Part shown: positions 5,196 through 49,712 of the stretch, in pieces
Numbering within the stretch: position 1 is the stretch's first letter
Layout of the letters: the number at the start of each line of letters is the position of its first letter
Assembly (NCBI GenBank): GCA_964449585.1
Contig: CAYUZE010000001.1
Span: 140,142-204,141 of the forward strand
Reading direction: 5' to 3'
DNA from: an uncultured Gammaproteobacteria bacterium
Lineage (GTDB): Bacteria > Patescibacteriota > Microgenomatia > UBA10105 > UBA927
Length of the DNA stretch: 64,000 bases
Notes under the pieces: model-generated
What the model saw: only the letters and a program-made list of their open reading frames with translations
What the model was told of the DNA's origin: nothing
The model's database searches: none
Made by a program: the position numbers and the translations under genes

Positions 5196-5196
5196 T

Positions 5197-6642: not shown

Positions 6643-7055
6643 TTTTCCTCCGTGTGTTCCGCTGGCGCTAAGGCAGCCAGTTTTAATGCTTTCGACACCA
6701 ACTCCTCTTGTTCCGGTGTTAATACTTCGTTGTCTGCTTTTAACCGCGCCGTTACTTCAACTTTGGTTGCATAGAGTGGATGGTGATGTTTGAGCCAGAA
6801 GATGATGGCTGTGAGATTTTTGTCCCGTATCGCACTCATAAGTTGGGATTCAGCCATATCGTTTACCAGCGACGCCCCTTCGATAAGCGCATCATTGGCC
6901 TGTTTAGCAAACATTTCGTCCTGATTGGTCCATCGGTAATAGGTGGCTCGCGCAATGCCGACTTTTTCGCATGCAATTTGAATAATAGGCGTACGTTTAA
7001 GTTGCTCAAGTAACAACGACTTATTTTTCTGTTGTCGTTTTTGGATTGTTTTCAT
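6639..7055 (-). CDS. Terminase small subunit-like HTH protein
   Basis: N-terminal HTH (IACEKVGIARATYYRWTNQD); 138 aa; translationally coupled immediately upstream of terL. Confidence 0.5.
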   Translation of the reverse strand: MKTIQKRQQKNKSLLLEQLKRTPIIQIACEKVGIARATYYRWTNQDEMFAKQANDALIEGASLVNDMAESQLMSAIRDKNLTAIIFWLKHHHPLYATKVEVTARLKADNEVLTPEQEELVSKALKLAALAPAEHTEEK

Positions 7056-8389
7056 AGGATTCGTTTAGCCTTTTGACCAGTAAGTTTTTCCCACCGGTTA
7101 CGGATGACTTCCGCGTAGACTGGTGATTTTTCCATAAGAAAGCAGCGCCGTTTCAGCTTTGTAGCAGCTATAAGGGTGCTGCCTGATCCTCCAAAAGGCT
7201 CCACGATTAGGTCTCCGCGCTTCGTGAGCACCTTGATGTACGGGATAAGGATTTCGAGAGGCTTGGTGCCAAAAATAATACCTTGCCCGGAACTTTTTTC
7301 ATCCGCGGCTACATGTTCTATGAAATCGGTAGGCTGATACTTCTTGCCTTTCTCATACCCTTCCCAATGAGGTTTTCCGGATATAGCATAGAGAGCCGTT
7401 TCGTATTCATTCTGTAAACCATCTTCTTCGGTCTCGTTATTGAATTCAACGTCGGTATTTTTGCTCGCTCCCACCATGGCAATATCATGTTTGCTAAAGA
7501 ATTTATATTTAGCTGAAAATCCTTGTACACGGTTTGGCAAATGCCACACAAGCATATTCTTTATCTTCCAATGTGCTTCCATAGCTGACCAAATAGTGCG
7601 GATATTTTTCCAGTTTTCATAGACGATGATAGAAAAATGTTCTTTTTGTACTTTGGCTATATTATTCATCCAGAGTTCCGTGAAGTTGTCCGGTAGCACA
7701 TCGGTTTCAAGATATCTGCGATCACGCTTGGCCCCAAAACCAGTAACAGCATTTCCATGTTTCTTTTTACCCTTGAGATAGTCGAGGATGTATGGCGGAT
7801 CGGTAAAACACATATCTGCCTTTTCTTCATCCATAAGCTTTAATACATCTGCTTCAACCGTGGAATCGCCACACATCATGCGGTTATCGCCTAGTGCATA
7901 AACGTCTTGTTTTTGTATCGATATTTTGTCGATTTTGAGCTTGTGCAGTTCTTTTTGAAGATCAAATTCCTCCGGTGTTTCGTCGATGCCAAATATGTCA
8001 TCCATTTCTTCGCTGGTAAATCCGATGTCGGTAAGCAGTGATTGGTCGAATTTCGCGAGTTTACTCCAGTCCCAATAACCGGTGTTTCTATTTAACCGGA
8101 TATTTAATTCCTTCTCTCGTTCAACATCTGGAATCGTGAGATATACGACAGGGATGGTTTTGTACCCCAAGTCTTTCGCAACTTTAAGGCGCATGTGGCC
8201 ACCTATGACAATATTCTGTCTATTAGGTGCGTTGTTAACGATAATGGGATCAACAAGGCCATACCTCTTTACACTCTCCGTAAGTTGTTTGAGGGCATCC
8301 GGGGTCCATTTCCGTGGGTTATAGATAGCTGCATTTAGGCCAGTTATTTGGATATATAGAACCTGTAACTTAGAGTCGATCGTTTGCAT
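7052..8389 (-). CDS. ParB-like nuclease domain fused to a DNA methyltransferase (N6A/N4C, beta class)
   Basis: ParB N-terminal motif VDPIIVN...GGHMRLKVAKDLGY; methylase motif IV CFTDPPY and motif I EPFGGSGST; the track ORF extends to 8503, and the start is chosen at Met 8389 to avoid overlap. Confidence 0.8.
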   Translation of the reverse strand: MQTIDSKLQVLYIQITGLNAAIYNPRKWTPDALKQLTESVKRYGLVDPIIVNNAPNRQNIVIGGHMRLKVAKDLGYKTIPVVYLTIPDVEREKELNIRLNRNTGYWDWSKLAKFDQSLLTDIGFTSEEMDDIFGIDETPEEFDLQKELHKLKIDKISIQKQDVYALGDNRMMCGDSTVEADVLKLMDEEKADMCFTDPPYILDYLKGKKKHGNAVTGFGAKRDRRYLETDVLPDNFTELWMNNIAKVQKEHFSIIVYENWKNIRTIWSAMEAHWKIKNMLVWHLPNRVQGFSAKYKFFSKHDIAMVGASKNTDVEFNNETEEDGLQNEYETALYAISGKPHWEGYEKGKKYQPTDFIEHVAADEKSSGQGIIFGTKPLEILIPYIKVLTKRGDLIVEPFGGSGSTLIAATKLKRRCFLMEKSPVYAEVIRNRWEKLTGQKAKRIL

Positions 8390-8453
8390 GTTAAGAACAT
8401 TGTAGGGAGAAGCGTTGATGCAAACGATAGAGGTCTTACAAGGTGTTAATAAC

Positions 8454-27553: not shown

Positions 27554-28069
27554 ATGCAACAAGCCGGTTCTCCGATGCGTAAAGATGAGGAAGTATATGC
27601 GACGTGGAGTTCTCCTTCGCGGCTGTTTAAAAAGCGCGACCGTGAGTTTTTTGTCAATATTTTTGCCATCGTCTTTCTTTTGTCGGTCATCCTCGTGTTT
27701 GTGCGAGAATTTGTGCTTATTGCGACCGTTCTCTCGATCGTTTTCTTAATTTATGTGCTTTCTACCGTTCCTCCCGAAGAAATGCGCCATCGGGTGACCA
27801 GCTTGGGAATCGAAAGCGGCGGACATTTTTACCGATGGGAAGAGTGTGCCGATTTTTGGTTTGAAGAGCAATGGGGACAAACAATACTGGTGTTACGCCT
27901 TTTTATGGCTCCCCGGGTGATCATACTCTTGGGGGATCAACCGAAGGATAAACTGCGCGAATATGTCGCAAAATATATTCCGTATAGGGAACAGCCGGAT
28001 CGCACGTGGGTTGATAATGCCGCCCGATGGATAAGCGAAAAGATTCCATTGGAAAAGCCGCAAGCATAG
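27554..28069 (+). CDS. Membrane protein (171 aa), hypothetical
   Basis: Two N-terminal TM helices; ORF. Confidence 0.45.
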   Translation: MQQAGSPMRKDEEVYATWSSPSRLFKKRDREFFVNIFAIVFLLSVILVFVREFVLIATVLSIVFLIYVLSTVPPEEMRHRVTSLGIESGGHFYRWEECADFWFEEQWGQTILVLRLFMAPRVIILLGDQPKDKLREYVAKYIPYREQPDRTWVDNAARWISEKIPLEKPQA

Positions 28070-28109
28070 CGTGGCCGGGCACGTTTGTTGTACAATACGG
28101 AAGGTATTC

Positions 28110-28181
28110 GCGCCCATAGTTCAATGGATAGAATAGGAGCTTGCGGAGCTTCTGATACAGGTTCGACTCCTGTTGGGCGTA
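28110..28181 (+). tRNA. tRNA-Arg, anticodon GCG as parsed
   Basis: Acceptor GCGCCCA/TGGGCGT (G1-U72 wobble), D arm GTTC-AATGGATA-GAAT, anticodon stem GGAGC/GCTTC with loop TTGCGGA, T arm ACAGG-TTCGACT-CCTGT, discriminator A. Confidence 0.6.
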
Positions 28182-28191
28182 CACGAGATTT

Positions 28192-28536
28192 ATGTCTTCC
28201 CGTTTTTTTATTGCCCTAGGGATCCTCTTTTGTGCTGCGGCCGGCATCGTTACGCTTTGGAGGCAGCCGTTCATAATATCATTGCTTCTTATCGCGTTAA
28301 CGCTTCTTAAGCGCCGGCTATTGCCCATTAAACGAGAGTTTCTCTGGTATATGGGACTTACCTTCGGAGGCGCGATTGTGGAAGTGGTGATGGTCAATAT
28401 CGGCGGCGGATGGAGGTACGCCAAACCGCAGTTTCTCAATATCCCGCTCTGGATGCCGTTATTTTGGGGACTCGTTGGCACGACGGTGATCGTGCTTTAT
28501 AGGGAATTAATCGGGAGACATTCATCGGATTTTTGA
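28192..28536 (+). CDS. Small membrane protein (114 aa)
   Basis: Three predicted TM helices. Confidence 0.4.
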   Translation: MSSRFFIALGILFCAAAGIVTLWRQPFIISLLLIALTLLKRRLLPIKREFLWYMGLTFGGAIVEVVMVNIGGGWRYAKPQFLNIPLWMPLFWGLVGTTVIVLYRELIGRHSSDF

Positions 28537-28543
28537 TACGTCT

Positions 28544-28978
28544 ATGAAGATTGCCGTATGCGGAAGCCTTACCTTTCACCACGAGATGCGCGAAGTGGAA
28601 AAAGCGCTGCGTTCTCTTGGCCATACGCCGCTTGTTCCCAAAAGCCTCGATCTTATCGATACACATGGATTTAAAAAACCGGAGACGGTGAGCGAACGCC
28701 TTGCCGCGGAAAATCACTATGATTTTATCCGAGAGCATTTCCGAAAAATTGAACAGGCGGAAGCAGTACTTGTAGTGAATCCCCCGAAAAACGGCATAGA
28801 AGGATATATAGGAGGGAACACTTTTCTTGAGATGGGAATAGGATTTTATCTGGGGAAAAAACTGTATGTGCTGTGTGCGCTTCCTCGTATGGGGTATGAA
28901 CTTGAGCTTGCAAGCATGCGTCCCACGGTGATTGGTGGAATTGCCAACCTCTCCATTATTGGCGCTGACGGGGTTTGA
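28544..28978 (+). CDS. Nucleoside 2-deoxyribosyltransferase-like (NDT/Rcl-like) protein, paralog A
   Basis: MKIAVCGSLTFH...GGNTFLEMGIGFYLGKKLYVL matches the NDT-family pattern (G.T.FE.G.A.ALGKP); about 50% identical to the 29145 gene. Confidence 0.5.
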   Translation: MKIAVCGSLTFHHEMREVEKALRSLGHTPLVPKSLDLIDTHGFKKPETVSERLAAENHYDFIREHFRKIEQAEAVLVVNPPKNGIEGYIGGNTFLEMGIGFYLGKKLYVLCALPRMGYELELASMRPTVIGGIANLSIIGADGV

Positions 28979-29034
28979 AGTATAATACGGGAGCACTAAC
29001 GTACCGGATATACCGGCACAGCCCTAAGTTGCAT

Positions 29035-29121
29035 GGAAGGATGCCGGAGCGGCTAAACGGCCAGGTCTCGAAAACCTTGGGGGTCGAAAGGCCCACGCGA
29101 GTTCAAATCTCGCTCCTTCCG
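29035..29121 (+). tRNA. tRNA-Ser (anticodon CGA), type II
   Basis: Acceptor GGAAGGA/TCCTTCC, D stem GCC/GGC with long D loop, anticodon stem CAGGT/ACCTT (one C-U mismatch) with loop CTCGAAA, variable arm, T arm GCGAG-TTCAAAT-CTCGC, discriminator G. Confidence 0.75.
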
Positions 29122-29144
29122 CCGATAGTTATTGAAGTTTCACT

Positions 29145-29561
29145 ATGACAATTACCATTTGCGGCAGCATGCAGTTTCATAAGGAAATGGCCGTGATGCG
29201 GGATGCCCTGAAAGCAAGAGGGTATCGTGTTTTCGTGCCAGGAGAACTCGACGATATTCACAAAAATGAATCCTATATGGATTCCGACGAAGAACGAATT
29301 ACCGTAAAAATCGAATACGACTTTATCCGCGAACACTTTCGCAAAATTGAACAGTCGGATGCGATCCTTATCGTTAACTACGAAAAAAAAGGAATCCCCG
29401 GTTATATAGGCGGCAACACCTTCCTTGAAATGGGGTATGCCTTCGGTTTAGGAAAAAAGGTGTATTTGCTGTATCCGGTTCCCGATATGGACTACAAAAC
29501 GGAAATGCACGCAATCCAGCCTCTTGTTTTGGACGGCGACATAGCGCGCATCGGCGACTAA
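29145..29561 (+). CDS. Nucleoside 2-deoxyribosyltransferase-like protein, paralog B
   Basis: MTITICGSMQFHKEM...GGNTFLEMGYAFGLGKKVYLLYPVPDM; paralog of the 28544 gene. Confidence 0.5.
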   Translation: MTITICGSMQFHKEMAVMRDALKARGYRVFVPGELDDIHKNESYMDSDEERITVKIEYDFIREHFRKIEQSDAILIVNYEKKGIPGYIGGNTFLEMGYAFGLGKKVYLLYPVPDMDYKTEMHAIQPLVLDGDIARIGD

Positions 29562-31645
29562 GGTTGTACTTCCGCGCCGTTTCTTGCCTCAATCGAGAGC
29601 AGTGTACGGATGACCGTCCCTGAGGTATCTTTAAGTACAATGTTCCCCCCGTTAAATCCTTTAAGTTCATTATTTTTTACTTTTTCGACGCCGGAAATAC
29701 CATCATAACTATTGGTGGAATACAGGTAACTGCAGCATTCGTCATACAGCGTGTTATGCAGGTTGCCGATATCTACGATTGCGTTGGGATACGTTATCCG
29801 GGTGAATGCCGGGGTGAACGATACGCCGCTTACCGTTGCAAGTGCCGCGATATTAGGATCATTCATGAGGTGTGGCATGACACCGATTGCTACCGGCACG
29901 TTCGGGCGGGTATTACCGACGATGCGCTGATGGAGTGCCACTTTCGGCACGCGTCCGCCGAAGATGGTTTCCAAAAGTGAGAGCAATCGTTCTTCTTCTT
30001 CCTGTTTTCGCAACGCCGGGGTAACCCACACGGTGGATCCTAGTACATCTTCGGCAAGCGGTTTTTTATCGCTGCCGACGATGGCGCCGCGTTTTGCAGG
30101 AACGACCGTTGTTTCAAGTGTTGAACCGTCGGTATATCCTGGGATCAACATGTCCCATTGCCATTCAATTCGCCACCTATTTTGTTCGCGGATGAACGGA
30201 ATGGTGATCTTGTGGGTAAATTTACCTAATCGTCGGGTAAAAAATGTCGCATCGGCATAAAGCGTAAATGTGTTGTTATCTTCGTGTATGCCGGGGACGA
30301 TAGGATCCAAAAGAATTTGTTCAATCTCTCCGCCGTCCATAAGCATCATTCCCTGTCGACGAAAATCCTCGCGGCTTACCCGACTTTTGCTTTCGGTTGT
30401 TAGGTGTTCATACAAATCGGCAAAAAACTTATTATGTATTTCATACATCACTAAATTGACGGTATTCGTCGACGGCGGAAAAAGTATCGGGAGAGACGAT
30501 GCGATATTTGCGATTGTCATAACGCTAAGAACGAAAAATAACACTCCCCTTTTTGTTTGTGAAAGCGCCGCACCGCCCGAGATGTACAGCAACGGAAGGA
30601 CAAGAACGAGATATCTGGTCCAAAAAGGAATTACCGCGTAAACGACGACCATACAAAGCGCCGCACCAGAAATCAAAAGCAGGGGAGAGTGGTAATTTTT
30701 TTTTCGTAATCCCGCGATGAACGTAAGGATACTTAAAAGAAACACAAAACCCCAGGTTGGGCTCCATTCACTGGCACGTTCCCAAAAATGGGTAAACAGA
30801 TTTTGGTATTGTCCGGTAAAAAGTGTTGCGATACTGCTCCCCCATGTCGGAGATATATTGCTGCCTCGATAAAAAGAAATCATCCATTTCTGTAATTTCA
30901 GCCATTCAATAATGGAGTGGCCCTGAATGAAATACCAGGTATAGGGGATGAGATATCCCGACACAGCCCCGATGATAAATGCCATGATGAGCCGCCAATT
31001 TTTTGTACGCTGCCAGAAATAATATACGCCGATTCCTCCCAATACCGGGGCAAAGATCGGCAATTTCACCTCGGCAAACAGCCCAAGCACAACGCCCGAC
31101 AGTCCTGCTCCGAGAAAATTTCGACGGACGTTGCCGGAAGTGAGCGAAAACAACGACAAAAAGAAAAGCACCACGGTGAGTGCCTGCAACGCATCCATCA
31201 TGGTGAGCGTGAATTGATTGGTAATCAAAGGATCGGTAGCCAGTAATAAGGCAACCCAAAAAGCGGATACCGAGTTGCCTAAAAGTTTCTTGGTCAAGAG
31301 AAATGTGGTAACGACAAGGAGGGAGGTTGTAATAAATCCGTAAAGATAGCCGTTCCCCAATAGCACGATACTTGCCCCGATGAGATATTTTCCCAGCGGA
31401 GGAACCTCGGCATTTGCACTTAAGAGATCTCCCCCTCGAATGAGACGATACCCCTCGTAGAGGTAAAGACCATCGTCGCCTATGACGCGGGGGGATAACG
31501 GTAACTTCCAGTGTGACTGTTCATACTTGTCTTGCCAATACGGCTCGTCAAAATGAGAAAAAAGTTGCGCCCTATTTGCAAAGACCACAAGAGTGAAATA
31601 ACAAAAAAGGAGAACCGAGAGGATGGTACGAATACCTTTTTTCAT
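29558..31645 (-). CDS. GT-C fold membrane glycosyltransferase (ArnT/PMT-like), 695 aa, with a C-terminal extracytoplasmic domain
   Basis: About 12 TM helices; DE motif in the first loop (HFDEPYW); large C-terminal soluble domain. Confidence 0.6.
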   Translation of the reverse strand: MKKGIRTILSVLLFCYFTLVVFANRAQLFSHFDEPYWQDKYEQSHWKLPLSPRVIGDDGLYLYEGYRLIRGGDLLSANAEVPPLGKYLIGASIVLLGNGYLYGFITTSLLVVTTFLLTKKLLGNSVSAFWVALLLATDPLITNQFTLTMMDALQALTVVLFFLSLFSLTSGNVRRNFLGAGLSGVVLGLFAEVKLPIFAPVLGGIGVYYFWQRTKNWRLIMAFIIGAVSGYLIPYTWYFIQGHSIIEWLKLQKWMISFYRGSNISPTWGSSIATLFTGQYQNLFTHFWERASEWSPTWGFVFLLSILTFIAGLRKKNYHSPLLLISGAALCMVVVYAVIPFWTRYLVLVLPLLYISGGAALSQTKRGVLFFVLSVMTIANIASSLPILFPPSTNTVNLVMYEIHNKFFADLYEHLTTESKSRVSREDFRRQGMMLMDGGEIEQILLDPIVPGIHEDNNTFTLYADATFFTRRLGKFTHKITIPFIREQNRWRIEWQWDMLIPGYTDGSTLETTVVPAKRGAIVGSDKKPLAEDVLGSTVWVTPALRKQEEEERLLSLLETIFGGRVPKVALHQRIVGNTRPNVPVAIGVMPHLMNDPNIAALATVSGVSFTPAFTRITYPNAIVDIGNLHNTLYDECCSYLYSTNSYDGISGVEKVKNNELKGFNGGNIVLKDTSGTVIRTLLSIEARNGAEVQP

Positions 31646-31680
31646 GTGATCCCATTCTAGCAGAGTGCATAAAAGGGCGG

Positions 31681-31686
31681 TATAAT
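31681..31686 (+). promoter_or_regulatory. -10 TATAAT about 10 nt upstream of tRNA-Arg(CCG)
   Basis: TATAATACGC; the same TATAATACGG arrangement is seen at 28981 upstream of tRNA-Ser(CGA). Confidence 0.35.
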
Positions 31687-31695
31687 ACGCTTATT

Positions 31696-31770
31696 GCTCT
31701 CGTAGTTCAATGGATAGAATGCGGCCCTCCGAAGGCTGTGATATGGGTTCGACTCCCGTCGAGAGTACCA
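31696..31770 (+). tRNA. tRNA-Arg (anticodon CCG) with encoded CCA
   Basis: Acceptor GCTCTCG/CGAGAGT, anticodon stem CGGCC/GGCTG with loop CTCCGAA, T arm ATGGG-TTCGACT-CCCGT, discriminator A, then CCA. Confidence 0.8.
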
Positions 31771-31788
31771 AAACGCTATACTACCCAT

Positions 31789-32385
31789 ATGGATGATCAA
31801 AAAAGACTTACCCATCTTATCTACGAAGCCGCCAACGTGAAGCGGATGCTTCGTACCGGATGGCAGCGGCTGGGAGACAACGAAGAAGGCGTCGGGGAAC
31901 ATTCGTTTATGACCGCGGTTATCGCTTATTTTTTGGCAAAGGAAATTAACGCATCCGATAATCCAGAACGGAAGGTTTCAATGGAAAAAGTATTGATCAT
32001 GAGCATTTTTCATGACTTCCATGAAGGGCGGACGGGCGAAATGGATAAAATGGCAAAACGTTATATGACACGCCATGAGGATAAGGCAAATACGGATATA
32101 TTCCAGGGTGTGGATGATGCGCTCCTTGCGACATTGAATGAATACGAGGAAAAGCAGACGCTTGAGGCACAAATCGTCTACGAGGCAAATGTTATCGCCT
32201 TTGGTGTCGAATGCCGTATTCTCATGGAAAAAGGCAATTCCCATGCAAAGGAATGGATGGACGCGAACTCACTCCGTGTCCGACTTCCCGAATCAGTTGC
32301 CCTCATGCGCGCGCTTGCGGATACCGATTCGCAGGACTGGTGGAAAGATATTCGCGATGCTATCCACGAAGAATTCGCAAAATAG
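31789..32385 (+). CDS. HD-domain phosphohydrolase (YfbR-like 5-prime-deoxynucleotidase family)
   Basis: EHSFMTAVIAYFLA...IFHDFHEGRTGEMD carries H...HD...E/D metal motifs; the track ORF start (31738) overlaps the tRNA, so the start is set at Met 31789. Confidence 0.65.
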   Translation: MDDQKRLTHLIYEAANVKRMLRTGWQRLGDNEEGVGEHSFMTAVIAYFLAKEINASDNPERKVSMEKVLIMSIFHDFHEGRTGEMDKMAKRYMTRHEDKANTDIFQGVDDALLATLNEYEEKQTLEAQIVYEANVIAFGVECRILMEKGNSHAKEWMDANSLRVRLPESVALMRALADTDSQDWWKDIRDAIHEEFAK

Positions 32386-35487: not shown

Positions 35488-37011
35488 TTAAATCGCCTCA
35501 TAAAAATTCGAGCAAAATTCTTCAATGTCTTTTATTGTCGCGGGTGTAAGCTGAAAGATTTGATAAAATTTTTTATCGAGCTTTGCCTGTATTGCAGAAA
35601 AATCGAAACCGGGTCTGGTGCGAAGGTTCTTCACGAGTGCCGCTACCGTCAAGGCAATTTTTTTCTTTTCTGCGGCGGGAGGCTCCTGATAAGGAAGGAG
35701 CCGAAGATAGTTTGCCGAAATATGATTCGTTCTGATAAGAACTTTGCGAGAAAAATACCAAGCAAGTTTTGTGTTTAACAGTCCGAGGGTATAAAAAAGA
35801 GTTTCTCGGTCGCGGAAAAAAAAGTTTGCATTTACCCCGAAAAGACAGTTTTTCGGAAGATATGCGGCGGAAAATCTGACACCGACGGATGAACAGGTAA
35901 TTCCTTCCTTAAAAAAGAATTTTTCGTTGCGGACGAGGTAATTCGCTACGGTTCTTTGATACTTTTCATAATTTCTTTCGATAAAAAATTCCGGTTGATA
36001 GTAGTACGCCCTGCGTGCACCGTTCTTAAAATATGGAACCCACTGTTTGTTATTTTGCACCTCCTCACGGCGCCTAAGAAACCGTTTATCGTTTCCGGTT
36101 GATATCCCCGTTCCTCCCATGACAATATCGCCGAGACGGGCAGACGGATGAAGGTACATGTCCCGTATCTGCGGGGACACACCGATCAAAAACGCCCCGT
36201 TAGGATAATGGGTGAATTCATCCTGTTTAATATACTCAACGCGTTGCGGATGCAGGTAATCATCTTCGGTATGTACCCGATCGACAAGTCTTATCGGAGG
36301 CATTGATGTGCGCTTCGAAGAAATGGTCTCTCCTTCCATTTTTTTAGTTGCGGTAAGAATACAGGTGCGAACATCAGCAGATCTTCCGTGAAACAGTTTC
36401 CATGGAGCCAACAGCAATTCATGCATCTGTGTATTTCGTAAGAGAAACAGTCGAAAACTTTTATAATAACTGTTCGTAAGAAATGAATCGGAAAGAATCA
36501 TTGAAAAAATTCCGTTTTCCCGTAATGCATTGATTGCCCTGTAGGCAATCATGCTGTACGTGTTTTTTGCATCTATTTCCTTAAATTGTTCTTTTAGCCG
36601 TTTTCTGTTTTCCCGAACATAGTGTGATTCATCGCCGTTATAGGGGGGATTACCGACAATAAAATCGTAGGTTTCGGGAAACGGGTAGGTTGCGTCAAAT
36701 ACCCGAACATTTGGAAATTTTTTTCGGAGGGCATCCACTTTTTGTTCATCAATATCAAATCCGTATAAATCGTCGCGAGAAATTCCCGCCTGATGAAGTG
36801 CCGAAAGAAATATACCGTCACCGACGGCAGGGTCAAGGATCTTCATGCCCTTTCGGTATGAGGAGAGAACGTTATTGCAGATATACTCGACCGTTTTCAG
36901 CGGTGTTTCGTAAAATCCGTTGACCCGGTCTTTTCCTAACTGTTCTTGGGTAAATATCCGCGGCATCGTATGGTACTTTCGGAGTGTACCCTTGAGGAAG
37001 AAGCGAAACAA
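35488..37011 (-). CDS. N6-adenine DNA methyltransferase (Eco57I/TaqI-like, gamma class) with a C-terminal target-recognition domain; no partner nuclease seen
   Basis: Motif I ILDPAVGDGIFL, motif IV VGNPPY; about 250-aa C-terminal domain. Confidence 0.75.
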   Translation of the reverse strand: MFRFFLKGTLRKYHTMPRIFTQEQLGKDRVNGFYETPLKTVEYICNNVLSSYRKGMKILDPAVGDGIFLSALHQAGISRDDLYGFDIDEQKVDALRKKFPNVRVFDATYPFPETYDFIVGNPPYNGDESHYVRENRKRLKEQFKEIDAKNTYSMIAYRAINALRENGIFSMILSDSFLTNSYYKSFRLFLLRNTQMHELLLAPWKLFHGRSADVRTCILTATKKMEGETISSKRTSMPPIRLVDRVHTEDDYLHPQRVEYIKQDEFTHYPNGAFLIGVSPQIRDMYLHPSARLGDIVMGGTGISTGNDKRFLRRREEVQNNKQWVPYFKNGARRAYYYQPEFFIERNYEKYQRTVANYLVRNEKFFFKEGITCSSVGVRFSAAYLPKNCLFGVNANFFFRDRETLFYTLGLLNTKLAWYFSRKVLIRTNHISANYLRLLPYQEPPAAEKKKIALTVAALVKNLRTRPGFDFSAIQAKLDKKFYQIFQLTPATIKDIEEFCSNFYEAI

Positions 37012-40478: not shown

Positions 40479-42281
40479 ATGTATGGTATTCTGCGCAGGC
40501 TTATGTCCGATATTGATGAAATCAAATCAAGACTGAATATCGTCGATATCATCGGCGAGCGGGTAACACTGAAAAAAGCGGGACGAAACCTCAAGGGACT
40601 CTGTCCCTTTCATAACGAAAAAACTCCTTCATTTACCGTAAGCCCCGACAGACAGACATTTCATTGCTTCGGTTGCGGGAAAGGCGGCAGTGTTTTTGAT
40701 TTTGTGATGTTAATTGAGCATGTGGATTTTGCCGAGGCTCTGGAAACCCTTGCCGACAAAGCGGGGGTAACCTTGGAGCGGCGTCCCGCCGATACGCCGG
40801 AAGCAAAAATCAAACAAAAAATTCTTGAGGCAAACCATTTGGCGAGCGAATACTATCACTATCTGCTGACGCAACATGCGGTGGGAGAACACGCCAGAGC
40901 ATATCTGAAACACCGGGGAGTGACCGATAAATCAATGAAGACGTTCTCAATCGGCTATAGCCCCAATACCTGGGACAGCGTAGGATCGTTCTTACGAAAA
41001 AAAGGCTATGATGATCGTCTGCTGGAGACTGCGGGTTTGGTGATACGGGGAACCCGGGGCTATTATGACCGGTTTCGGGGGCGGGTGATGTTTGCCCTCA
41101 AAGATCATCGGGGGAACGTGGTGGGATTTTCCGGACGGGTGCTGGATCCCGAAGCAAAAGAGGCAAAGTACATCAACACATCGGAGACTCCCGTCTATGT
41201 CAAAGGAAAAATGCTGTATGGACTTGATGTCACCAAGGATTCGATTCAAAAAAATAACGAGGCGATTGTCATGGAGGGAGAATTGGACGTCATTTCTTCA
41301 TTTCAGGAAGGGATTTCGAATGTTGTTGCCATTAAAGGCTCCGCGGTGACCGAAGACCATGTACGATTGTTGCGGCGTTTTGCCGAACGGCTTATTTTTG
41401 CGCTTGATAGCGATCTTGCGGGAGATGCAGCGGCAAGAAGAGGCATTGAAATTGCGGAAAAATCAGGCTTTGATATGCGGGTTGCGGCCATGCCGCTGGG
41501 GAAAGATCCCGATGAAGCCGCCCGAGAAAACCCGCTTCTTCTCAAGAAAGCGTTAAAGGAAGCGGTTCCTATCTATGATTACTTCCTTTCTTCGGCGCTC
41601 AAACGGAATGATCCAGAAACCGCATTCGGCAAACGAAAAATATCCGAGGAATTTATGCCCACATTGTTAAAGATCGACAATCCGATCGTGCAGGGTCATT
41701 ATATACGGAAACTTTCAGCCGCTCTTGCAACCTCCGATGAAACGGTACGGGAAGGTATGGCAAAAATACGAATCAGCGGCAGTCTCCGGGGGAAGGAGAA
41801 AGAAAATCTTACGGAAGCGCCCCGGCTCACGCGGGTGGAAAAGGCCGAGTTGTATGTACTGGCGCTCCTGCTCCAGGGAAAAACGAGCGAACTGCTCCCG
41901 AAGTTTCTTGCCGCATTGCCTCCTTCGGCGTTTCGTTCGCTTGCGGTGAAACGGATTGTCGAGCATCTTGCCCAATTTGGAGCCACGCACGCGATGTTTG
42001 CATCGAAAGATGTAGCGGAAACGTTACCTTCGGAACTAGTACCGGTTTTTGATGAGGCGTTTATGTGGGATATCGCTCTTATCATCGATGATGAAACGCG
42101 ATTTGATGCCGAGTGGCACAAAGCGATTTCCGAGGTGCGCCGGGCGCAGGTGAGGCAACACATGGAAGAAATAAGTAAAAAACTCCGTGATGAACAACTC
42201 TCTTCTTCGCAACATGACGCGCTGCAATCCGAGCTCAAGGGGTTGGTGGACGAATTTGCCGCTCTGGAAAAAGGCGCGTAA
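40479..42281 (+). CDS. dnaG: DNA primase DnaG
   Basis: CHC2 zinc finger CPFHNEKTPSFTVSPDRQTFHCFGCGKGG; TOPRIM region EGELDVIS...DSDLAGDAAA; 600 aa. Confidence 0.85.
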   Translation: MYGILRRLMSDIDEIKSRLNIVDIIGERVTLKKAGRNLKGLCPFHNEKTPSFTVSPDRQTFHCFGCGKGGSVFDFVMLIEHVDFAEALETLADKAGVTLERRPADTPEAKIKQKILEANHLASEYYHYLLTQHAVGEHARAYLKHRGVTDKSMKTFSIGYSPNTWDSVGSFLRKKGYDDRLLETAGLVIRGTRGYYDRFRGRVMFALKDHRGNVVGFSGRVLDPEAKEAKYINTSETPVYVKGKMLYGLDVTKDSIQKNNEAIVMEGELDVISSFQEGISNVVAIKGSAVTEDHVRLLRRFAERLIFALDSDLAGDAAARRGIEIAEKSGFDMRVAAMPLGKDPDEAARENPLLLKKALKEAVPIYDYFLSSALKRNDPETAFGKRKISEEFMPTLLKIDNPIVQGHYIRKLSAALATSDETVREGMAKIRISGSLRGKEKENLTEAPRLTRVEKAELYVLALLLQGKTSELLPKFLAALPPSAFRSLAVKRIVEHLAQFGATHAMFASKDVAETLPSELVPVFDEAFMWDIALIIDDETRFDAEWHKAISEVRRAQVRQHMEEISKKLRDEQLSSSQHDALQSELKGLVDEFAALEKGA

Positions 42282-43446: not shown

Positions 43447-44235
43447 ATGGAGCAGGAGACAATGTCCGCTTCCGTCATGCCCGAACCGCATCAACGAAGA
43501 TTTCATCCCACGGATTTTTTGTTCGGAATACTTCTTGGCGCGCTTATCGGAGGGGGGGCGGTATATATCTGGCAACAGCGGGTGTGGCAACCTACGGTAA
43601 ACGCTCTTAAAAAAGAGTACGCGGCGCTCAACGAGTCGTATCTTTCTTATACTCCGCCGACTCATCCCGTACCCGCCACGGAAAGCGGGGTGGCTTCATA
43701 CGGCAACGGAGAACAGGTGAAGACGGGGAACGAGGAGTTTTCAAGAAAAAGCGTCGGATTTTCCCTGCCGGCATTGGTCGGGCAAACGCTTGATGTCACG
43801 GTATTTTCATTTAAGGGGAAAACCATCACCAACCTGCGCTCGGACGTGCTCGTTTCGGAATCCGAAGCGGGCATTGACGTCTGGCGTTATGATAACGCCG
43901 CAGAAGCAAAAGATATTCCCGACGATTTTGTGACGTTTTACGGGTATGAGAATTATGCGCTTTTTGCATCACCCGTCGCAGTGACGATGAATGATTCGGA
44001 TGATACGTATACGACGGCAGACGGAACTATATGGAAGTATCAATATGAATATGCGCCAAGAAGTATCGGGGTGGTTTCGTTGATTACCTATGTGCAACCG
44101 CAAAAAAACAATTCCGGAAAGCCGCTTTTTATCAGAGTATGGCAAGCAGTAGGGCTCGGACACCAAAAGAACGATCCGGAAATTTCAAAGGCAAAAATTA
44201 CCCTTGCCAAGCTTGTTGACGCGATCGAATTCTAG
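43447..44235 (+). CDS. Hypothetical membrane-anchored protein (262 aa)
   Basis: N-terminal TM LFGILLGALIGGGAVYIW; ORF. Confidence 0.4.
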   Translation: MEQETMSASVMPEPHQRRFHPTDFLFGILLGALIGGGAVYIWQQRVWQPTVNALKKEYAALNESYLSYTPPTHPVPATESGVASYGNGEQVKTGNEEFSRKSVGFSLPALVGQTLDVTVFSFKGKTITNLRSDVLVSESEAGIDVWRYDNAAEAKDIPDDFVTFYGYENYALFASPVAVTMNDSDDTYTTADGTIWKYQYEYAPRSIGVVSLITYVQPQKNNSGKPLFIRVWQAVGLGHQKNDPEISKAKITLAKLVDAIEF

Positions 44236-44247
44236 CGAACAGTTCCG

Positions 44248-44382
44248 TTACGGAAGAAAATATTTCACGGCATACATGAGGAGCGCAAATCCGACGACAA
44301 CGATAAACGCGACTCCAAACTGAATAATAACGCTGTCACTCGGATGGACTGACTTCTTGACTCGGGCAGATTTTGCTTTCAT
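44248..44382 (-). CDS. Unannotated 44-aa single-TM small protein MKAKSARVKKSVHPSDSVIIQFGVAFIVVVGFALLMYAVKYFLP
   Basis: Hand translation of the minus strand; strong SD AGAGGAGGAATAT before the ATG; cationic N-terminus plus one TM helix. Confidence 0.35.
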   Translation of the reverse strand: MKAKSARVKKSVHPSDSVIIQFGVAFIVVVGFALLMYAVKYFLP

Positions 44383-44516
44383 ATATTCCTCCTCTTTCTA
44401 TATATCTAGCATAGAAAGTATTTGGTATCTTTGTCAATTATGTATTCCCCGGCATTGTTTCGTCCTCAGGCATACTTTATGATAAAGAGAGTCCGCGAAT
44501 TTCGGGCGCCCTGCCT

Positions 44517-45939
44517 ATGGTTATTGCCGATGACGTTTTGCAAAAAATTCTTATAGATGCGCATGTCGTTACCAACGACGAAATGCGATCGGTTGCCGAT
44601 TTTGCAAAATCAGCTTCCATGCCGCTTTCCGACGCGCTGATCGATAAAAATATCCTCACCGACGGAAATTTAGGCAAACTTATCGCCGCACACCTGAAAG
44701 TGCCGTTCGTCAATCTTGCCGAAACCACCATCGCCGATGAGGTGTATCGCATCATTCCCGATAAATACGCAAAAACCCATAAAATAGTGCCTTTTTCCCG
44801 GGATGACAGCGGGTTAAAAGTCGCAACCGCAAATCCATTAAACACCCAGGTCTTTTCCGCGCTCGAGAAGAAAACGGGACAAAAAATCATCGTTCACTAT
44901 GCGACGGAGCACGATGTGCACAACGCCCTTCAGTTGCACCGGCGGGAACTACAGTCCGTTTTTACGGATATGGTTGCCCGATTCCGTCGTGAAGAGGACG
45001 TTCCTATTTCAAACATTGTTGATTTACTGCTGCATACCGCCGTTGATGAGACGGCTTCCGATATTCATATCGAACCGGGAGAGTCCGACTCGCTGGTGCG
45101 TTTTCGTATCGACGGTATTTTGCATGATGTGCTGCATTTCTCCAAAACCATGCATAGCCAAGTCGTGAGCAGAATTAAAGTGTTGGCAAATCTCCGCACC
45201 GACGAACACTCAGCGCCCCAGGATGGAAAAGTACGTATCAAACACGATGAACAGTCGGTGGATATCCGTATATCCATCATTCCAATGGTGGAAGGAGAAA
45301 AGGTGGTCATGCGACTTCTTGTTTCGCATTTTAAATTGTTTAGTTTTTCGGATTTGGGAATGGAGCAATCCGCAGTGGACAAAATCAATGCCGCGCTGCA
45401 CCGGTCCTACGGTATGATCCTTTCCACCGGACCGACAGGGAGCGGCAAGACGACATCGATCTATGCCATGCTCAAAATTCTTAATGTTCGCGACAAGAAC
45501 ATCACCACCATTGAAGATCCGGTGGAATATCGGATAAAAGGAGTAAACCAGATACAGGTGAATACAAAGACAAATCTTACCTTTGCCAGCGGGCTACGCT
45601 CCATTCTTCGGCAGGATCCCAATATAATTTTTGTCGGAGAAATACGCGATCCTGAGACTGCGGGCATCGCCATTAACGCAGCCCTTACCGGGCATTTAGT
45701 TGTATCTACGCTTCATACCAACGATGCCGCCACGTCACTGCCGCGATTGACGGACATGCATGTTGAACCGTTTTTGGTGGCTTCAAGCGTCAGTCTAATC
45801 GTCGCACAACGGTTGGTGAGAAAAATTTGTGACTATTGTCGCATCTCGTTTACCGTTACCGAAGCAGAATTACAAAAAAGCCTGCCGGCAAGCGTGATCA
45901 GCAAGCATTATATTCCCTTCGGCGTCAATAAAGAGATTC
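44517..45939 (+). pseudogene. pilB: Type IV pilus assembly ATPase PilB (GspE family), 5-prime portion, interrupted by an IS insertion after codon ...NKEIR
   Basis: N-terminal GSPII_E_N domain; Walker A LSTGPTGSGKTT; first CxxC (CDYC) of the C-terminal zinc motif; the reading frame runs into the IS terminal repeat and stops. Confidence 0.8.
45932..45939. repeat. 8-bp target-site duplication AGAGATTC, left copy
   Basis: Identical to 48402-48409 at the other end of the inserted element. Confidence 0.6.
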
Positions 45940-46038
45940 GGTGGTGCTCCCTTCAAGACACGTAATAAAGCAATCAACTACAATTTATTACTTAAAAAAT
46001 CATTTGAGAAAATTGGTAGAGAGAATTACGAAGATAAT

Positions 46039-46341
46039 TTACACGTCTTCTATGCGGGCATTTGATTTGCCTCTGGCTATTACACTTGGATCTACACCCA
46101 CGATACGTTTAAGTGTGTCAATAGCAGACTGAAACATACTTTCTGCTTGTGCAGAGGTCGGTGGATTTCCAGAAAAGTGTGCATAATTGCCAAAAGCTTT
46201 TGCGGCTTCTTCACCATATCTCTCAGAAAATGCCTCGGAATCAAACCCAGCCCCGGTTGTAGTTCTTCCGTCACTTTTTCTCCGCATACGAATCCAATAT
46301 CGAGAAAAGTCGTCCTGATCAGGAAGTTCATGATTTGTCAT
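46039..46341 (-). CDS. Hypothetical protein (100 aa), passenger gene inside the IS
   Basis: ORF only. Confidence 0.35.
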   Translation of the reverse strand: MTNHELPDQDDFSRYWIRMRRKSDGRTTTGAGFDSEAFSERYGEEAAKAFGNYAHFSGNPPTSAQAESMFQSAIDTLKRIVGVDPSVIARGKSNARIEDV

Positions 46342-46419
46342 GTTTGTAGTATATCATATAGTATCAAATTCTTAAAATTATACTAATGTAATCATGTTTT
46401 GGATTGTCCATACATGTAA

Positions 46420-47199
46420 TTAATCAGCCTCCTTTACTTTTTCCAATGTCTCTCTATTCATCCCGTTTGTTTCTATTTCTTTCCAAGTTGAAAGATAAAA
46501 CTCAAGGTCAGATGCATATTCAAGCGTCTTTTGAATATGCCGATACAGATACCGTTTTGATCGCTCATCCGGGCAAATTATGATAATAATAGGAAACGGA
46601 TGTTTTGCGGCTTCTTGCCAGGTATCCTCATCAAAATATTCCACATATTGATTGATTCTCCGTCGTAATATCATACGGGCTGGTAGTGGATCTAGTATGT
46701 CCAGGAAATACCGTTTCATTTTCCCGCTTTGCTCTTTGATGGCAATATAGGCATCAGGATGTGGATTGAGGATGTAGTCGTGTTCATATAAATCTGTCTT
46801 AGTAAAGAAATGAAGAACAGCATTGGTTGTTTTGACAAGTTCCGTAAGCGATAAATAAATATCTGCCAAGAACAGGGAATGTATACGAAATTGTTCTGAT
46901 AATGTGTGTTCTCTCCATACCCTGTTCAGTAACTGTGGTTGAATCGTGCTTCCTTTTTCATTTGCTTTTTCCAGTAGATATTTTCTTCCTTTTGCTCCTA
47001 ATGAATATAATGCAGCTATAGTTACGGTTTTTGGATTATAGTATTTCCGAATAAAGCCATTGTTAGTTAATTGATTAAGCCAGATGATTACGCGATTAAA
47101 ATATTTGTGATTAAGGAGACTTTGAATTTGGAGACGATTGAGGAAACGAAAGCGATAGAGGTAAATAAGTATTTCTTCTTGCCGATGAGTAAGTATCAT
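46420..47199 (-). CDS. Replication-relaxation (Replic_Relax) family protein, passenger gene inside the IS
   Basis: N-terminal LTHRQEEILIYLYRFRFLNRLQIQSLLN matches the Replic_Relax winged-helix signature (LT.RD..IL..L...R.lt..Qi..L). Confidence 0.5.
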   Translation of the reverse strand: MILTHRQEEILIYLYRFRFLNRLQIQSLLNHKYFNRVIIWLNQLTNNGFIRKYYNPKTVTIAALYSLGAKGRKYLLEKANEKGSTIQPQLLNRVWREHTLSEQFRIHSLFLADIYLSLTELVKTTNAVLHFFTKTDLYEHDYILNPHPDAYIAIKEQSGKMKRYFLDILDPLPARMILRRRINQYVEYFDEDTWQEAAKHPFPIIIIICPDERSKRYLYRHIQKTLEYASDLEFYLSTWKEIETNGMNRETLEKVKEAD

Positions 47200-47457
47200 A
47201 GCATCTCTTTATATATAAAGAATAGTAGTGTAAGTAAATATAAATTATTTAGCCTTAAATATAAGGTAAATTAGTGTAAACACGCTTACACTAATTTGGA
47301 AGTATAACAGATTACCTAACTTATGCGAAGGGTGGAGTACTATTGCCAGTTTGGTATACTCAGAATATGCAAAAGAAGAAATTGGAAAATAACCTCTTGG
47401 TAAAAAAGCGACTTAAGGAAAATCAAACGATTGAAAAAAAAGATTTTATAAAGCTAC

Positions 47458-48351
47458 TCAAGAAAGCAACGCGAGTTTCAAGGCCTTCTTCAAAGCGATC
47501 TGCCTAAGCATGTCTGTAAACATATCATCTGATTTTCTGTTTCCGTAGCGGAATCCATATTCATTGGCATAGTGTTGTAGGTACTTAGGACTAATGTGGG
47601 TATAGACTCCAGTTACTCCTCTTTTAAAAATACTCCAAAACCCTTCGATTGAATTAGTGTGGATGTCAGTTCCTTTAATTACATACGTTTCTTTGTGGTT
47701 CACATAGGAATGGTTGTATCCATGTTGGGTTAATTGTTGATATGCTCCTAGTTGATCGGTATATATGGTGGCATCCGTTGCCAAATTTTCTTTAATCTGT
47801 TTAAGGATTGTCCATTTGCCGGTGTTAGGGATATGTCTTAAATGGATTTTTCCTCCTCGCTGGAGAATACCCATGACGATTTCTTTCGGCTTCTCATTGA
47901 AATGTGGAACAAAGCGTTTGTTCTTTCCATCTCCACCAATATATGTTTCGTCACTTTCATTTGTGCCATCCATTGGCTCCCCATCATCAGTCATAAGTTT
48001 GCGAATCTGATGGCACATGCGGAATGCACATTTATAGGTGACTCCAACTTCTCTTTGAATCTGACGTGCGCTGATGCCACTTCGGGTTTTACTCATGACC
48101 CACATGACATAAAACCATGTCCGTAGATCAGTTGTGCTTTTTTCAAAGATCGTGTTTTTAAGAGGATACACTTGAGTTCGACATATACCACAAGAATAGG
48201 CCATACGGCCATCAAGTTTGTAGAAGTTGGTTAGTTTTTGACATTTTGGGCAGGTAACACCATTGGGAAATACGAATTTCTTTATTTCATCTAAACACGC
48301 TTCGTTATTAGGATATTTTCTCAAAAACGTCTTGAGGCTAAGTTGTTTCAT
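47458..48351 (-). CDS. IS1595-family DDE transposase (ISXO2-like) with an N-terminal zinc ribbon
   Basis: CPKCQ...CGIC zinc ribbon; DDE residues in DETYIGG, IYTDQLGAY, NSIEGFWS. Confidence 0.8.
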   Translation of the reverse strand: MKQLSLKTFLRKYPNNEACLDEIKKFVFPNGVTCPKCQKLTNFYKLDGRMAYSCGICRTQVYPLKNTIFEKSTTDLRTWFYVMWVMSKTRSGISARQIQREVGVTYKCAFRMCHQIRKLMTDDGEPMDGTNESDETYIGGDGKNKRFVPHFNEKPKEIVMGILQRGGKIHLRHIPNTGKWTILKQIKENLATDATIYTDQLGAYQQLTQHGYNHSYVNHKETYVIKGTDIHTNSIEGFWSIFKRGVTGVYTHISPKYLQHYANEYGFRYGNRKSDDMFTDMLRQIALKKALKLALLS

Positions 48352-48401
48352 TCTTAGCCAAGAATATCATATTTATCCCGTGTTGTCAAGGGATCATCAC
48401 C

Positions 48402-48409
48402 AGAGATTC
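48402..48409. repeat. 8-bp target-site duplication AGAGATTC, right copy
   Basis: Identical to 45932-45939. Confidence 0.6.
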
Positions 48410-48663
48410 GGGTATATAAAGGGCAAGGATGTAAAAACTGCCGTTTTACGGGATACGCTGGGCGGGTCGGTATTTTCGAGGTATTGGAAGTAACCAAGGA
48501 AATAAAAAAACTGATTACCGAAAGAAAAGACAGTGACGTGATTGCACAAAAAGCGGTTGAGCAAGGGATGTTAACGATGCTTGATGACGGACTTATCAAG
48601 GTATCAAAGGGAGTGACGACAATCGAAGAAATACTTCGGGTTACCCGGGTGGAATCGTTATGA
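48402..48663 (+). pseudogene. pilB: PilB 3-prime fragment (C-terminal zinc-finger and tail), separated from the 5-prime part by the IS
   Basis: The frame gives EIRVYKGQGCKNCRFTGYAGRVGIFEVLEVTKEIKKLI...GLIKVSKGVTTIEEILRVTRVESL*, the canonical GspE C-terminus; the stop overlaps the pilC ATG (ATGA). Confidence 0.8.
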
Positions 48664-49712
48664 AAGCGGAAACTCTCACTCTCCAAAATTCTGAAAAATT
48701 GGCGTTGCTGAGTAATCTCTCGACTATGGTCAACGCCGGGTTAACGCTTGCCGAATCCATCAATTCACTCCTTGAAGACGCTACCGGTAATTTAAAAATC
48801 CTGCTTACGGGGATTGAGGCGGATATAACTCAGGGAAAGCCGCTTCATAGCGCCCTGGCTAAGTATCCTCGTGTATTTGATAGCGTTACGGTCGCCATTA
48901 TTAAAGCGTCGGAGGAATCGGGAACCATAGATGTCGTGCTTAAGGATGTAAAAAATACCATAAAAAAAGACATGGAGTTTAGCGATAAGATTCGTTCGGC
49001 ACTGACCTATCCCGCCGTTATTCTCGTAGTTTTTTTTGGCGTGCTTTTATTGCTTATTACCTTTGTTATTCCGAAAATTTCGGAAGTGTTTCTGCGCCTC
49101 CGCGTGGATTTGCCGCTTCCCACCCGCATTCTTATCGGTCTGTCGAATCTTGTGCTCAATTATACCCTTCCGACGCTTTTAGTACTGTTTGGACTTATTC
49201 TTATTCTCGTGTTTCTCTTTAAGCGAAAGCGTGCCTTTGTCATCAATGTTTTGCTTAATTTACCCTACGTGTCCACCATCGCGAGACAGATAGACCTGAC
49301 GAGATTTTCCCGCAGCATGTATTTACTGTTGGTCTCCGCAATTCCCTTGTACACGGCACTTGAGTTAACCCAGGCAGTTGCGATGAAAAAAGATATCCGC
49401 GAGGCGATCGCGAGAGCCCGAGAATATGTCGGGGGCGGGAAACGGTTGACGGATGGCTTACGCGGGCAAAAAAATATTCCCTCTTTGATGCTCAAGATCA
49501 TTGAGGTCGGTGAGCGAAGCGGTTCGCTTGATACATCAATGGAAGATCTGTCGGAATATTTTGATTATCAGGTGACGACCACGTTGCAGTATCTTATGAC
49601 GCTGCTCGAACCGGTGATCTTGGTGTTAGTCGGCGTTGTTGTGGGAGGAATGATGATGGCGATTATCGCGCCGATTTATAGTCTTATCGGTCAAGTGGGG
49701 GAGTTCCACTAG
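48660..49712 (+). CDS. pilC: Type IV pilus assembly platform protein PilC (GspF family)
   Basis: Two GspF-like repeats with TM segments; position immediately after pilB. Confidence 0.75.
   Translation: MKAETLTLQNSEKLALLSNLSTMVNAGLTLAESINSLLEDATGNLKILLTGIEADITQGKPLHSALAKYPRVFDSVTVAIIKASEESGTIDVVLKDVKNTIKKDMEFSDKIRSALTYPAVILVVFFGVLLLLITFVIPKISEVFLRLRVDLPLPTRILIGLSNLVLNYTLPTLLVLFGLILILVFLFKRKRAFVINVLLNLPYVSTIARQIDLTRFSRSMYLLLVSAIPLYTALELTQAVAMKKDIREAIARAREYVGGGKRLTDGLRGQKNIPSLMLKIIEVGERSGSLDTSMEDLSEYFDYQVTTTLQYLMTLLEPVILVLVGVVVGGMMMAIIAPIYSLIGQVGEFH

Follow-up and report, generated by a model that had tools for sequence, protein, structure and literature searches.

The pilB gene in a 64,000-nucleotide stretch of a Patescibacteria (CPR) genome (contig CAYUZE010000001.1 of assembly GCA_964449585.1; this whole 64-kb stretch is referred to as the window) is split by a 2.46-kb insertion sequence (IS) of the IS1595 family, which carries a relaxase-family gene, a conserved palindrome and two small genes besides its transposase. 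The best explanation as a whole, to which we assign a probability of about 0.55, is that this element is a recently inserted transporter IS (tIS) which carries a captured mobilisation module and may be moved between cells by conjugation. The components of this explanation differ in strength. It is practically certain that a genuine and recent IS1595-family insertion disrupts pilB, and it is probable that the cargo is a captured MOBC-type module; that this cargo mobilises the element by conjugation is a tentative proposal. We note that the insertion itself is ordinary, and that the unusual parts are the relaxase-plus-palindrome cargo, the phylum and the spread between hosts.

The insertion in pilB and its probable consequences

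The GspE/PilB-type open reading frame (ORF) starts at 44517 and reads as far as ...GVNKEIR, after which it runs into the foreign residues WCSLQDT and stops at 45965 (482 aa); the pilB frame is picked up again at 48410 and ends at 48663. This split, read from the sequence and the ORF list of 44300–48900, is as it was described in a first-pass annotation made from the DNA letters without database searches. When 45940–48409 are deleted in silico, an ORF of 1677 nt with the junction sequence TCAATAAAGAGATTCGGGTATATAAAG is restored, which encodes 558 aa (about 560 aa had been predicted), i.e., the length of the intact orthologs. The restored PilB shows the GspE/PilB architecture (PF00437 with 360 bits, and PF05157), and its partner pilC is present. 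An end-to-end alignment to TIGR02538 scores 530.6 bits, lower than the equivalog cut-off of 675.65, which supports a family-level assignment only. The restored protein is 95% identical to P0001 (558 aa), and its best database relatives are of the same length. The truncated 482-aa PilB is on record in the protein collection as P0122, and no exact intact 558-aa allele is on record there.

The locus that encodes P0001 (L010, assembly GCA_009612915.1) has the same gene order as the window, i.e., dnaG, rpoD, a 262-aa gene, pilB, pilC, and genes for a response regulator, a ThiF-like protein and a histidine kinase. Its pilB is uninterrupted and contains AATAAAGAGATTCGGGTGTATAAGG with a single AGAGATTC, which represents the empty site; in the window, the same 8 bp stand on both sides of the element, as the first reading had claimed. 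A BLAST comparison of this locus with the window gives two colinear blocks that meet at the insertion point. An assembly chimera, in which a repeat was mis-joined into pilB, is thus extremely improbable: the element is multicopy, and two short contigs carry it with mismatched flanks (see below), but a mis-join would not give an exact 8-bp duplication together with a restorable, full-length and 95%-identical PilB, nor flanks colinear with the empty-site locus over 7 kb on one side and 8 kb on the other.

The element follows codon 475 and lies between CDYC (438–441) and CKNC (482–485) of the C-terminal tetracysteine motif, so that the last 83 residues of PilB are lost. In GspE/PilB ATPases, the tetracysteine motif and the C-terminal subdomain are required for function, and the truncated PilB is therefore very probably inactive. 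The window contains no second PilB/PilT-like gene. In addition, pilC, which is translationally coupled to pilB, is now 2.46 kb away from the pilB promoter, the intervening DNA is transcribed in the opposite sense, and a promoter scan of the region found no outward-facing hybrid promoter able to rescue pilC; a polar effect on pilC is therefore likely. The ratio of nonsynonymous to synonymous substitution rates (dN/dS) of pilB, measured against the intact L010 ortholog, is 0.015 in both fragments, compared with 0.018 for pilC and 0.011 for rpoD. The insertion is thus recent, one of the possibilities raised in the first-pass annotation, since pilB is undecayed and the IS copies are identical. In the same comparison with L010, dnaG (40479–42281) shows a synonymous divergence (pS) of 0.18, and the rpoD, pilB, pilC, ThiF and kinase genes show values of 0.56–0.71; the low value of dnaG suggests a recent recombination tract.

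The element, its copies and its hosts

The boundaries of the element are defined by several independent features. The G+C content falls from 45.3% in the remainder of the window to 37.1% inside the element, and this change coincides with the element ends. The GG-initiated terminal inverted repeats (Table 1) are 23 bp long and imperfect, with 17 of 23 positions matching on alignment, and a degenerate repeat pattern has two matches in the 64 kb, which are these two ends, where none would be expected (100 shuffles). The repeats differ from each other (TTGACA vs. TTCAAG), and this difference is conserved in relatives because the −35 hexamer of a putative promoter sits inside the transposase-proximal repeat; this site, TTGACA-17-(TG)TATTCT, is the best promoter-like site in the region. 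A search of 44000–49000 against Rfam gave no match.

The assignment of the transposase to IS1595 in the first-pass annotation holds in profile searches, all of which pass their cut-offs: PF12762 (DDE_Tnp_IS1595) with 119.6 bits (E = 1.6e-34, cut-off 27), the zinc ribbon PF12760 with 37.2 bits (cut-off 25.4; CPKC at 34 and CGIC at 54), and the NCBIfam model NF033547 (IS1595) with 177.3 bits (cut-off 75). The candidate DDE triad is found in SDETY at 133, YTDQ at 197 and HTNSIE at 231. The named subgroups of the family are ISPna2, ISH4, IS1016, IS1595, ISSod11, ISNwi1 and ISNha5. Subgroups that carry passengers, such as ISPna2+ and ISNwi1+, share with the element a single zinc-ribbon transposase gene, an 8-bp duplication, GG ends and extra genes inside the repeats; the end motif of ISPna2, GGCnnTG, resembles the GGTGGTG/GGTGATG of the element. 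The transposase, the zinc ribbon, the 8-bp duplication and the GG-initiated repeats by which the IS1595 family is defined are all present, and an N-terminal zinc ribbon occurs in all groups of the family except IS1016 (PMC8101967). Among 72,556 plasmids, the best annotated IS1595 transposases are at most ~37% (31–37%) identical to that of the element, which is thus a distant and uncatalogued member of the family.

Other copies of the IS, the search for which had been recommended with the first-pass annotation, were found in public contigs. Nine other contigs encode precisely this transposase protein, and their element DNA is 100% identical to that of the window; in eight contigs with the element, the match ends at 45940 and 48401, confirming the exact boundaries. 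Two of these contigs hold the entire 2462 bp, flanked by 8-bp duplications of other sequence (AGATTCAC and GTAATTCC), and three others show further distinct left junctions; identical copies are present at five other sites. Homologs of the second gene of the element led to two further three-gene lineages, one of 2460 bp with 85% identity and one of 2474 bp with 75% identity, both of which occur at several sites. Counting identical and near-identical copies together, at least 15 sites other than pilB are occupied. Copies within a lineage differ by 0–6 nucleotides, and in a three-way comparison of the lineages, which are 75–85% identical overall, both ends are 96% conserved.

Across all lineages and the two cargo variants described below, a perfect 8-bp duplication is found at every one of the 12 distinct sites that have a complete element and matching flanks. 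The 15 target sequences known in all are AT-rich (73% A+T), unrelated to one another and mostly located between genes. This lack of site specificity bears on the idea that the element is a reversible phase-variation switch, by which precise excision would turn the pilus on and off. The clean insertion with its intact duplication would permit precise excision, and pilB is undecayed; however, given the unrelated targets, and given that a pilB insertion recurs in no other contig, we regard such a switch as very unlikely. In two Logan contigs (L044 and L045), complete elements have mismatched left and right 8-bp flanks (TAACAATG / ATTTATAT), each of which matches a different known insertion site; either two copies have recombined, or the assembly was joined across the repeat.

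A transposase search of genome contigs of the GTDB yielded three relatives only, two of which have the same repeats and 8-bp duplications with different cargo. The 3345-bp relative in L014 carries a Replic_Relax gene, i.e., the family of the second gene of the element, and a 386-aa PsbP-like secreted protein (6018–7178), and the 1949-bp relative in L015 carries a 123-aa and a 140-aa membrane ORF (4967–5775) and no Replic_Relax gene. The passengers are thus not needed for transposition, since L015 has the same ends and duplication without them. A TnsA-like role of the nuclease-like passenger in transposition was also considered and was ruled out, as L015 transposes without the nuclease. In the third relative (L016, 5273–6673), the transposase is 54% identical and a 352-aa nucleotidyltransferase-like ORF is a tentative cargo; one weakly matching end was found, and the boundaries are undefined. 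Taken together, the element is an active transporter IS with variable cargo.

The spread of the element between hosts is most evident in one contig (L001; ena:ERZ27258483:k141_160638, 5951–8412), whose copy shows 0 differences from that of the window in 2462 positions. The flanks of this copy are syntenic with 27575–32384 of the window, with proteins that are 44–80% identical and a nucleotide identity of ~70%, and other copies of the element lie in flanks of 33–52% G+C. An identical element in hosts whose syntenic proteins have diverged to this extent shows that it moved very recently, by horizontal spread, between well-diverged Patescibacteria.

The passenger genes and the upstream palindrome

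The first-pass annotation had named a Replic_Relax-family gene and a 100-aa ORF as passengers; both are present, while a 46-aa gene was missed, and neither the MOBC-type relaxase homology with its conserved DNA site nor the spread between hosts was recognised. Between lineages, the dN/dS is 0.04 for the transposase gene, 0.08–0.09 for the 259-aa Replic_Relax gene and 0.05–0.15 for the 100-aa gene, showing that all three are under purifying selection.

The 259-aa protein matches PF13814 (Replic_Relax), which is also precomputed on most of its 120 listed homologs. PF13814 has been described as a PD-(D/E)XK family that is usually fused to a helix-turn-helix domain (PMC3424549), and it has been equated with the MobC/MOBC relaxases, which streptococcal mobilisable elements pair with a VirD4 coupling protein and a serine integrase (PMC5357655). 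The member that has been studied, TraX of pAD1, combines a winged helix at its N-terminus with an active site of the restriction-endonuclease type (PMC12857230). An AlphaFold (AF2) model of the 259-aa protein, computed with 58 homologs, has a mean predicted local distance difference test score (pLDDT) of 93, and its N-terminal winged helix matches MarR/PadR/MepR–DNA complexes in Foldseek with a probability of 1.00. The C-terminal part follows an alpha-beta-beta-beta-alpha-beta order, in which P148-D149 opens the second strand and D/E167 lies in the third. The residues E97, D113, K134, P148-D149, D/E167 and D170 are conserved in 50–57 of the 58 sequences (P-D149 and D/E167 in 55–57), and the C-terminal half is predicted to form a PD-(D/E)XK-like core. 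A profile of the protein searched against the sequences of the PDB gave nothing meaningful. We infer that this passenger has relaxase activity.

Homologs of 41–47% identity adjoin either a large serine recombinase or genes for an 870–940-aa DUF87/TrwB-type ATPase, a TrbC/type IV secretion system (T4SS) pilin, restriction-modification, RadC, DUF2958 and DUF3768. The genomic context was then examined in 80 metagenomic loci, which a search with the family alignment had retrieved, with the upstream count limited to homologs that have at least 700 bp upstream. In these Patescibacteria loci, a VirD4-like gene is located directly upstream in 43/53 homologs of less than 65% identity, and within 1.3 kb in several more, often with genes for TrbC pilins, DUF2958/DUF3768 and serine recombinases, whereas the three homologs of at least 69% identity with upstream sequence follow an IS1595 transposase gene. 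Since the distant homologs sit behind VirD4-like genes and the close ones behind a transposase gene, the IS-borne genes form a derived branch of a family that usually belongs to the coupling-protein–relaxase pair of conjugative or mobilisable elements in Patescibacteria. According to a survey from 2025, genes for the T4SS and for type IV coupling proteins (T4CP) are widespread in Patescibacteria, and MOBC is the commonest relaxase class there; the same survey argues that these T4SS are mostly non-conjugative, with relaxases seemingly absent (PMC12102498). The T4CP-linked Replic_Relax family may be the relaxase that was mostly missing from the T4SS clusters in that survey (PMC12102498).

No Pfam, NCBIfam or PADLOC family matches the 100-aa protein, which in the 90% database falls only into a cluster of its own and has no structural neighbour; a deep search returned ~22 representatives, and in the loci examined it is not encoded near T4CP-linked Replic_Relax homologs. 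The 46-aa ORF is conserved in all four Replic_Relax-bearing lineages and absent from L015, and it has been called as a gene in L033 and L038. Outside its overlap with the transposase gene, synonymous sites are near saturation and the ratio of nonsynonymous to synonymous differences (pN/pS) is 0.07–0.25, so that this ORF is probably a fourth gene. Its product may be a relaxosome accessory protein or an antisense regulator.

Between the transposase gene and the 259-aa gene lies a spacer that is 62% conserved in the three-way comparison, inside which the block TAGTGTAAGCGTGTTTACACTA, a palindrome with the core AGTGTAA-n6-TTACACT, is invariant. An extra TTACACT half-site is located 37 bp nearer to the 259-aa gene. 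As single-stranded DNA, the palindrome is predicted to form a 13-bp hairpin of −8.9 kcal/mol (z = −4.7). Similar palindromes are found 60–140 bp upstream of the T4CP-linked homologs; those of L051–L053 have the identical core arms (AGTGTAA-gcgtgt-TTACACT), and in other loci both arms have changed together, as in TGTGTAA/TTACACA, AGTGTCA/TGACACT, AGTGTTAA/TTAACACT and AGTACACG/CGTGTACT. Of 73 distinct upstream windows, 35 contain a perfect inverted repeat of at least 6 bp with GTGT in its arm, compared with 9 among 1356 control windows taken in these loci; the Fisher P value of 3e-41 overstates the independence of these counts, because the loci are related. A co-evolving site beside a winged-helix nuclease looks like an origin of transfer (oriT), and it looks likewise like an autoregulatory operator; the data do not separate the two. 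In known systems, oriT and operator often coincide.

The coordinates of the element and of the pilus genes are collected in Table 1. Elsewhere in the window, a 441-aa ORF (2725–4050, minus strand) is 24% identical to large serine recombinases that stand beside Replic_Relax genes in other genomes, and the same region shows 66% nucleotide identity to the recombinase adjoining the element in L034; another integrated element is possibly located at the start of the window. A 507-aa restriction-modification methylase of the Eco57I/N6_Mtase type is encoded at 35488–37011 on the minus strand.

Table 1. Positions of the pilB fragments, the inserted element and its parts within the window
Feature	Position	Strand	Details
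pilB, 5' fragment	44517..45939	+	residues 1-475; MshEN domain, Walker A GPTGSGKT at 305, first CxxC 438-441
Target-site duplication, left copy, AGAGATTC	45932..45939	.	8 bp
Whole IS1595-family transporter IS	45940..48401	genes mostly -	2462 bp, 37.1% GC
Terminal inverted repeat distal to the transposase gene, GGTGGTGCTCCCTTCAAGACACG	45940..45962	.	23 bp
100-aa passenger, no family	46039..46341	-	small family, helical model
Replic_Relax (MOBC-relaxase-like) passenger	46420..47199	-	259 aa; winged helix and alpha-beta-beta-beta-alpha-beta core (predicted)
Near-perfect AT-rich palindrome, CTCTTTATATATAAAGAA	47205..47222	.	directly before the start codon of the 259-aa gene; conserved in element lineages
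Palindrome AAATTAGTGTAA-ACACGC-TTACACTAATTT	47268..47297	.	candidate oriT/operator; ~70 bp upstream of the 259-aa gene start
46-aa lysine-rich gene (probable)	47367..47507	+	divergent from the 259-aa gene; shares 50 nt with the 3' end of the transposase gene
Transposase, IS1595-family DDE	47458..48351	-	297 aa; N-terminal zinc ribbon
Promoter-like site for the transposase	48361..48389	-	TTGACA-17-TG-TATTCT, 10/12; -35 TTGACA within the inverted repeat
Terminal inverted repeat proximal to the transposase gene, reverse complement GGTGATGATCCCTTGACAACACG	48379..48401	.	23 bp
Target-site duplication, right copy, AGAGATTC	48402..48409	.	8 bp
pilB, 3' fragment	48410..48663	+	residues 476-558; second CxxC 482-485; severed from its own start and promoter
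pilC, T2SSF platform protein (PF00482)	48660..49712	+	start overlaps the pilB stop (ATGA)

A proposed route of mobilisation and its competitors

Based on these observations, we propose the following sequence of events. A module from conjugative or mobilisable elements of Patescibacteria, comprising the relaxase-like protein, the palindrome and the 46-aa and 100-aa genes, would have been captured by the IS. The transposase would be expressed from the promoter with its −35 hexamer in one inverted repeat and would act on both 23-bp ends, and the relaxase-like protein would bind the palindrome and nick nearby. The element, or a circular transposition intermediate of it, would then be handed to a VirD4-type coupling protein and a type IV secretion system acting in trans, and after transfer to a new cell the transposase would insert it again. 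The result would be an integrative mobilisable element (IME) of the MTnSag1/tISCpe8 kind with its own relaxase.

Several points weigh against this proposal. First, the PF13814 match of the 259-aa protein is barely over the cut-off (28.7 vs. 25.3 bits), and since tblastn of this protein against the 72,556 plasmids gave no match, the link to experimentally studied MOBC relaxases runs through the family model only. Second, no T4CP or T4SS gene is located within the window, and no circle junction (...GGGAGCACCACC + 0–10 nt + GGTGATGATCCC...) was found among 125 loci. Third, a promoter-like site directly precedes the palindrome, an arrangement that would suit a plain autoregulatory operator just as well. 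Fourth, identical copies in divergent hosts could also come from natural transformation or phage transfer; the route of the transfer between hosts is, in our proposal, something we infer.

In the main competing explanation, the element is an ordinary transporter IS that spreads by transformation or phages and has no part in conjugation; its Replic_Relax product would only regulate by binding DNA, or would be a nuclease for the element's own transposition or copy-number control, with the palindrome as operator. The position of the palindrome immediately after the promoter-like site, the description of the family as "a predicted transcriptional regulator" (PMC3424549), the window without T4SS genes and the 125 loci without a circle junction are all in line with such a regulator. 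However, the family stands behind VirD4-like coupling proteins in 43/53 cases and keeps acidic, catalytic-type residues under strong purifying selection, and the variant in which the protein is a transposition factor conflicts with L015, which transposes with identical ends and without a Replic_Relax gene. We therefore consider this explanation rather unlikely, though it is the most serious of the competitors. A further alternative is that the Replic_Relax protein is a replication initiator which maintains the excised element as a circle. The family name reflects reports of plasmid replication as well as of relaxation (PMC3424549), and IS1595 relatives do form circles (PMC5704250); nevertheless, the homologs are chromosomal and are coupled to T4CP genes rather than to replicon modules, and neither a free circular contig nor a junction is found among the loci examined, which makes replication a quite improbable function.

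The proposed mobilisation of the element can be compared with two kinds of known systems. MTnSag1 (tISSag10, Streptococcus agalactiae) and tISCpe8 (Clostridium perfringens) are IS1595-family tISs mobilised by Tn916; they circularise, end in 25-bp repeats, are flanked by 8-bp duplications and lack a relaxase (PMC5704250). Like the element, they combine an IS1595-type DDE transposase with ~25-bp repeats, 8-bp duplications, AT-rich targets of low specificity, multiple copies, a small size (1.7–2.0 kb, and 2.46 kb for the element) and passenger genes. They are regarded as IMEs (PMC5704250). The differences lie in the cargo and the host. In MTnSag1 and tISCpe8, the cargo includes a lincosamide-resistance gene, a relaxase is absent and the oriT is considered fortuitous, whereas the element carries a relaxase-family gene, a conserved palindrome and two small genes, has no resistance gene and resides in Patescibacteria. 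Mobilisable IS1595 transporter ISs are known only from these two Firmicutes elements, both without a relaxase, and the literature searched contained no IS1595 element with a relaxase, an absence which is no proof that none exists.

The second comparison is with pAD1 TraX, CloDF13 MobC and the streptococcal IMEs of class 8 (VirD4 + MobC/PF13814 + serine integrase), which share with the passenger the PF13814 family, a winged helix with a restriction-endonuclease-like core (a predicted one in the passenger) and a small size. The pairing with a VirD4-type gene and the serine recombinases nearby are common to the MOBC systems and the homologs outside the IS. In contrast, the copy in the element is apart from a coupling-protein gene and stands under a DDE transposase rather than a serine integrase. 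It is conceivable, although we hold it with some doubt, that the element is a self-sufficient mobilisable IS with its own MOBC relaxase, oriT and accessory proteins, which hitch-hikes on the near-universal type IV secretion systems of Patescibacteria.

Type IV pili are central to the attachment, movement and DNA uptake of ultra-small episymbiotic bacteria, and the recent, probable loss of the pilus motor, with the operon otherwise intact, would represent a natural mutant that is worth tracking in the population. If the proposed mobilisation is true, then Patescibacteria type IV secretion systems do move DNA, and the T4CP-linked Replic_Relax family is the relaxase of the phylum that has gone under-detected. 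With a conserved palindrome and a small protein modelled at high confidence, the hypothesis is directly testable in vitro, which bears on whether Patescibacteria T4SS conjugate DNA. The element would then unite two mobility mechanisms in 2.5 kb, i.e., transposition inside one genome and, probably, mobilisation by conjugation from one genome to another, which would help to explain gene flow in a phylum without genetics and with little-known mobile DNA.

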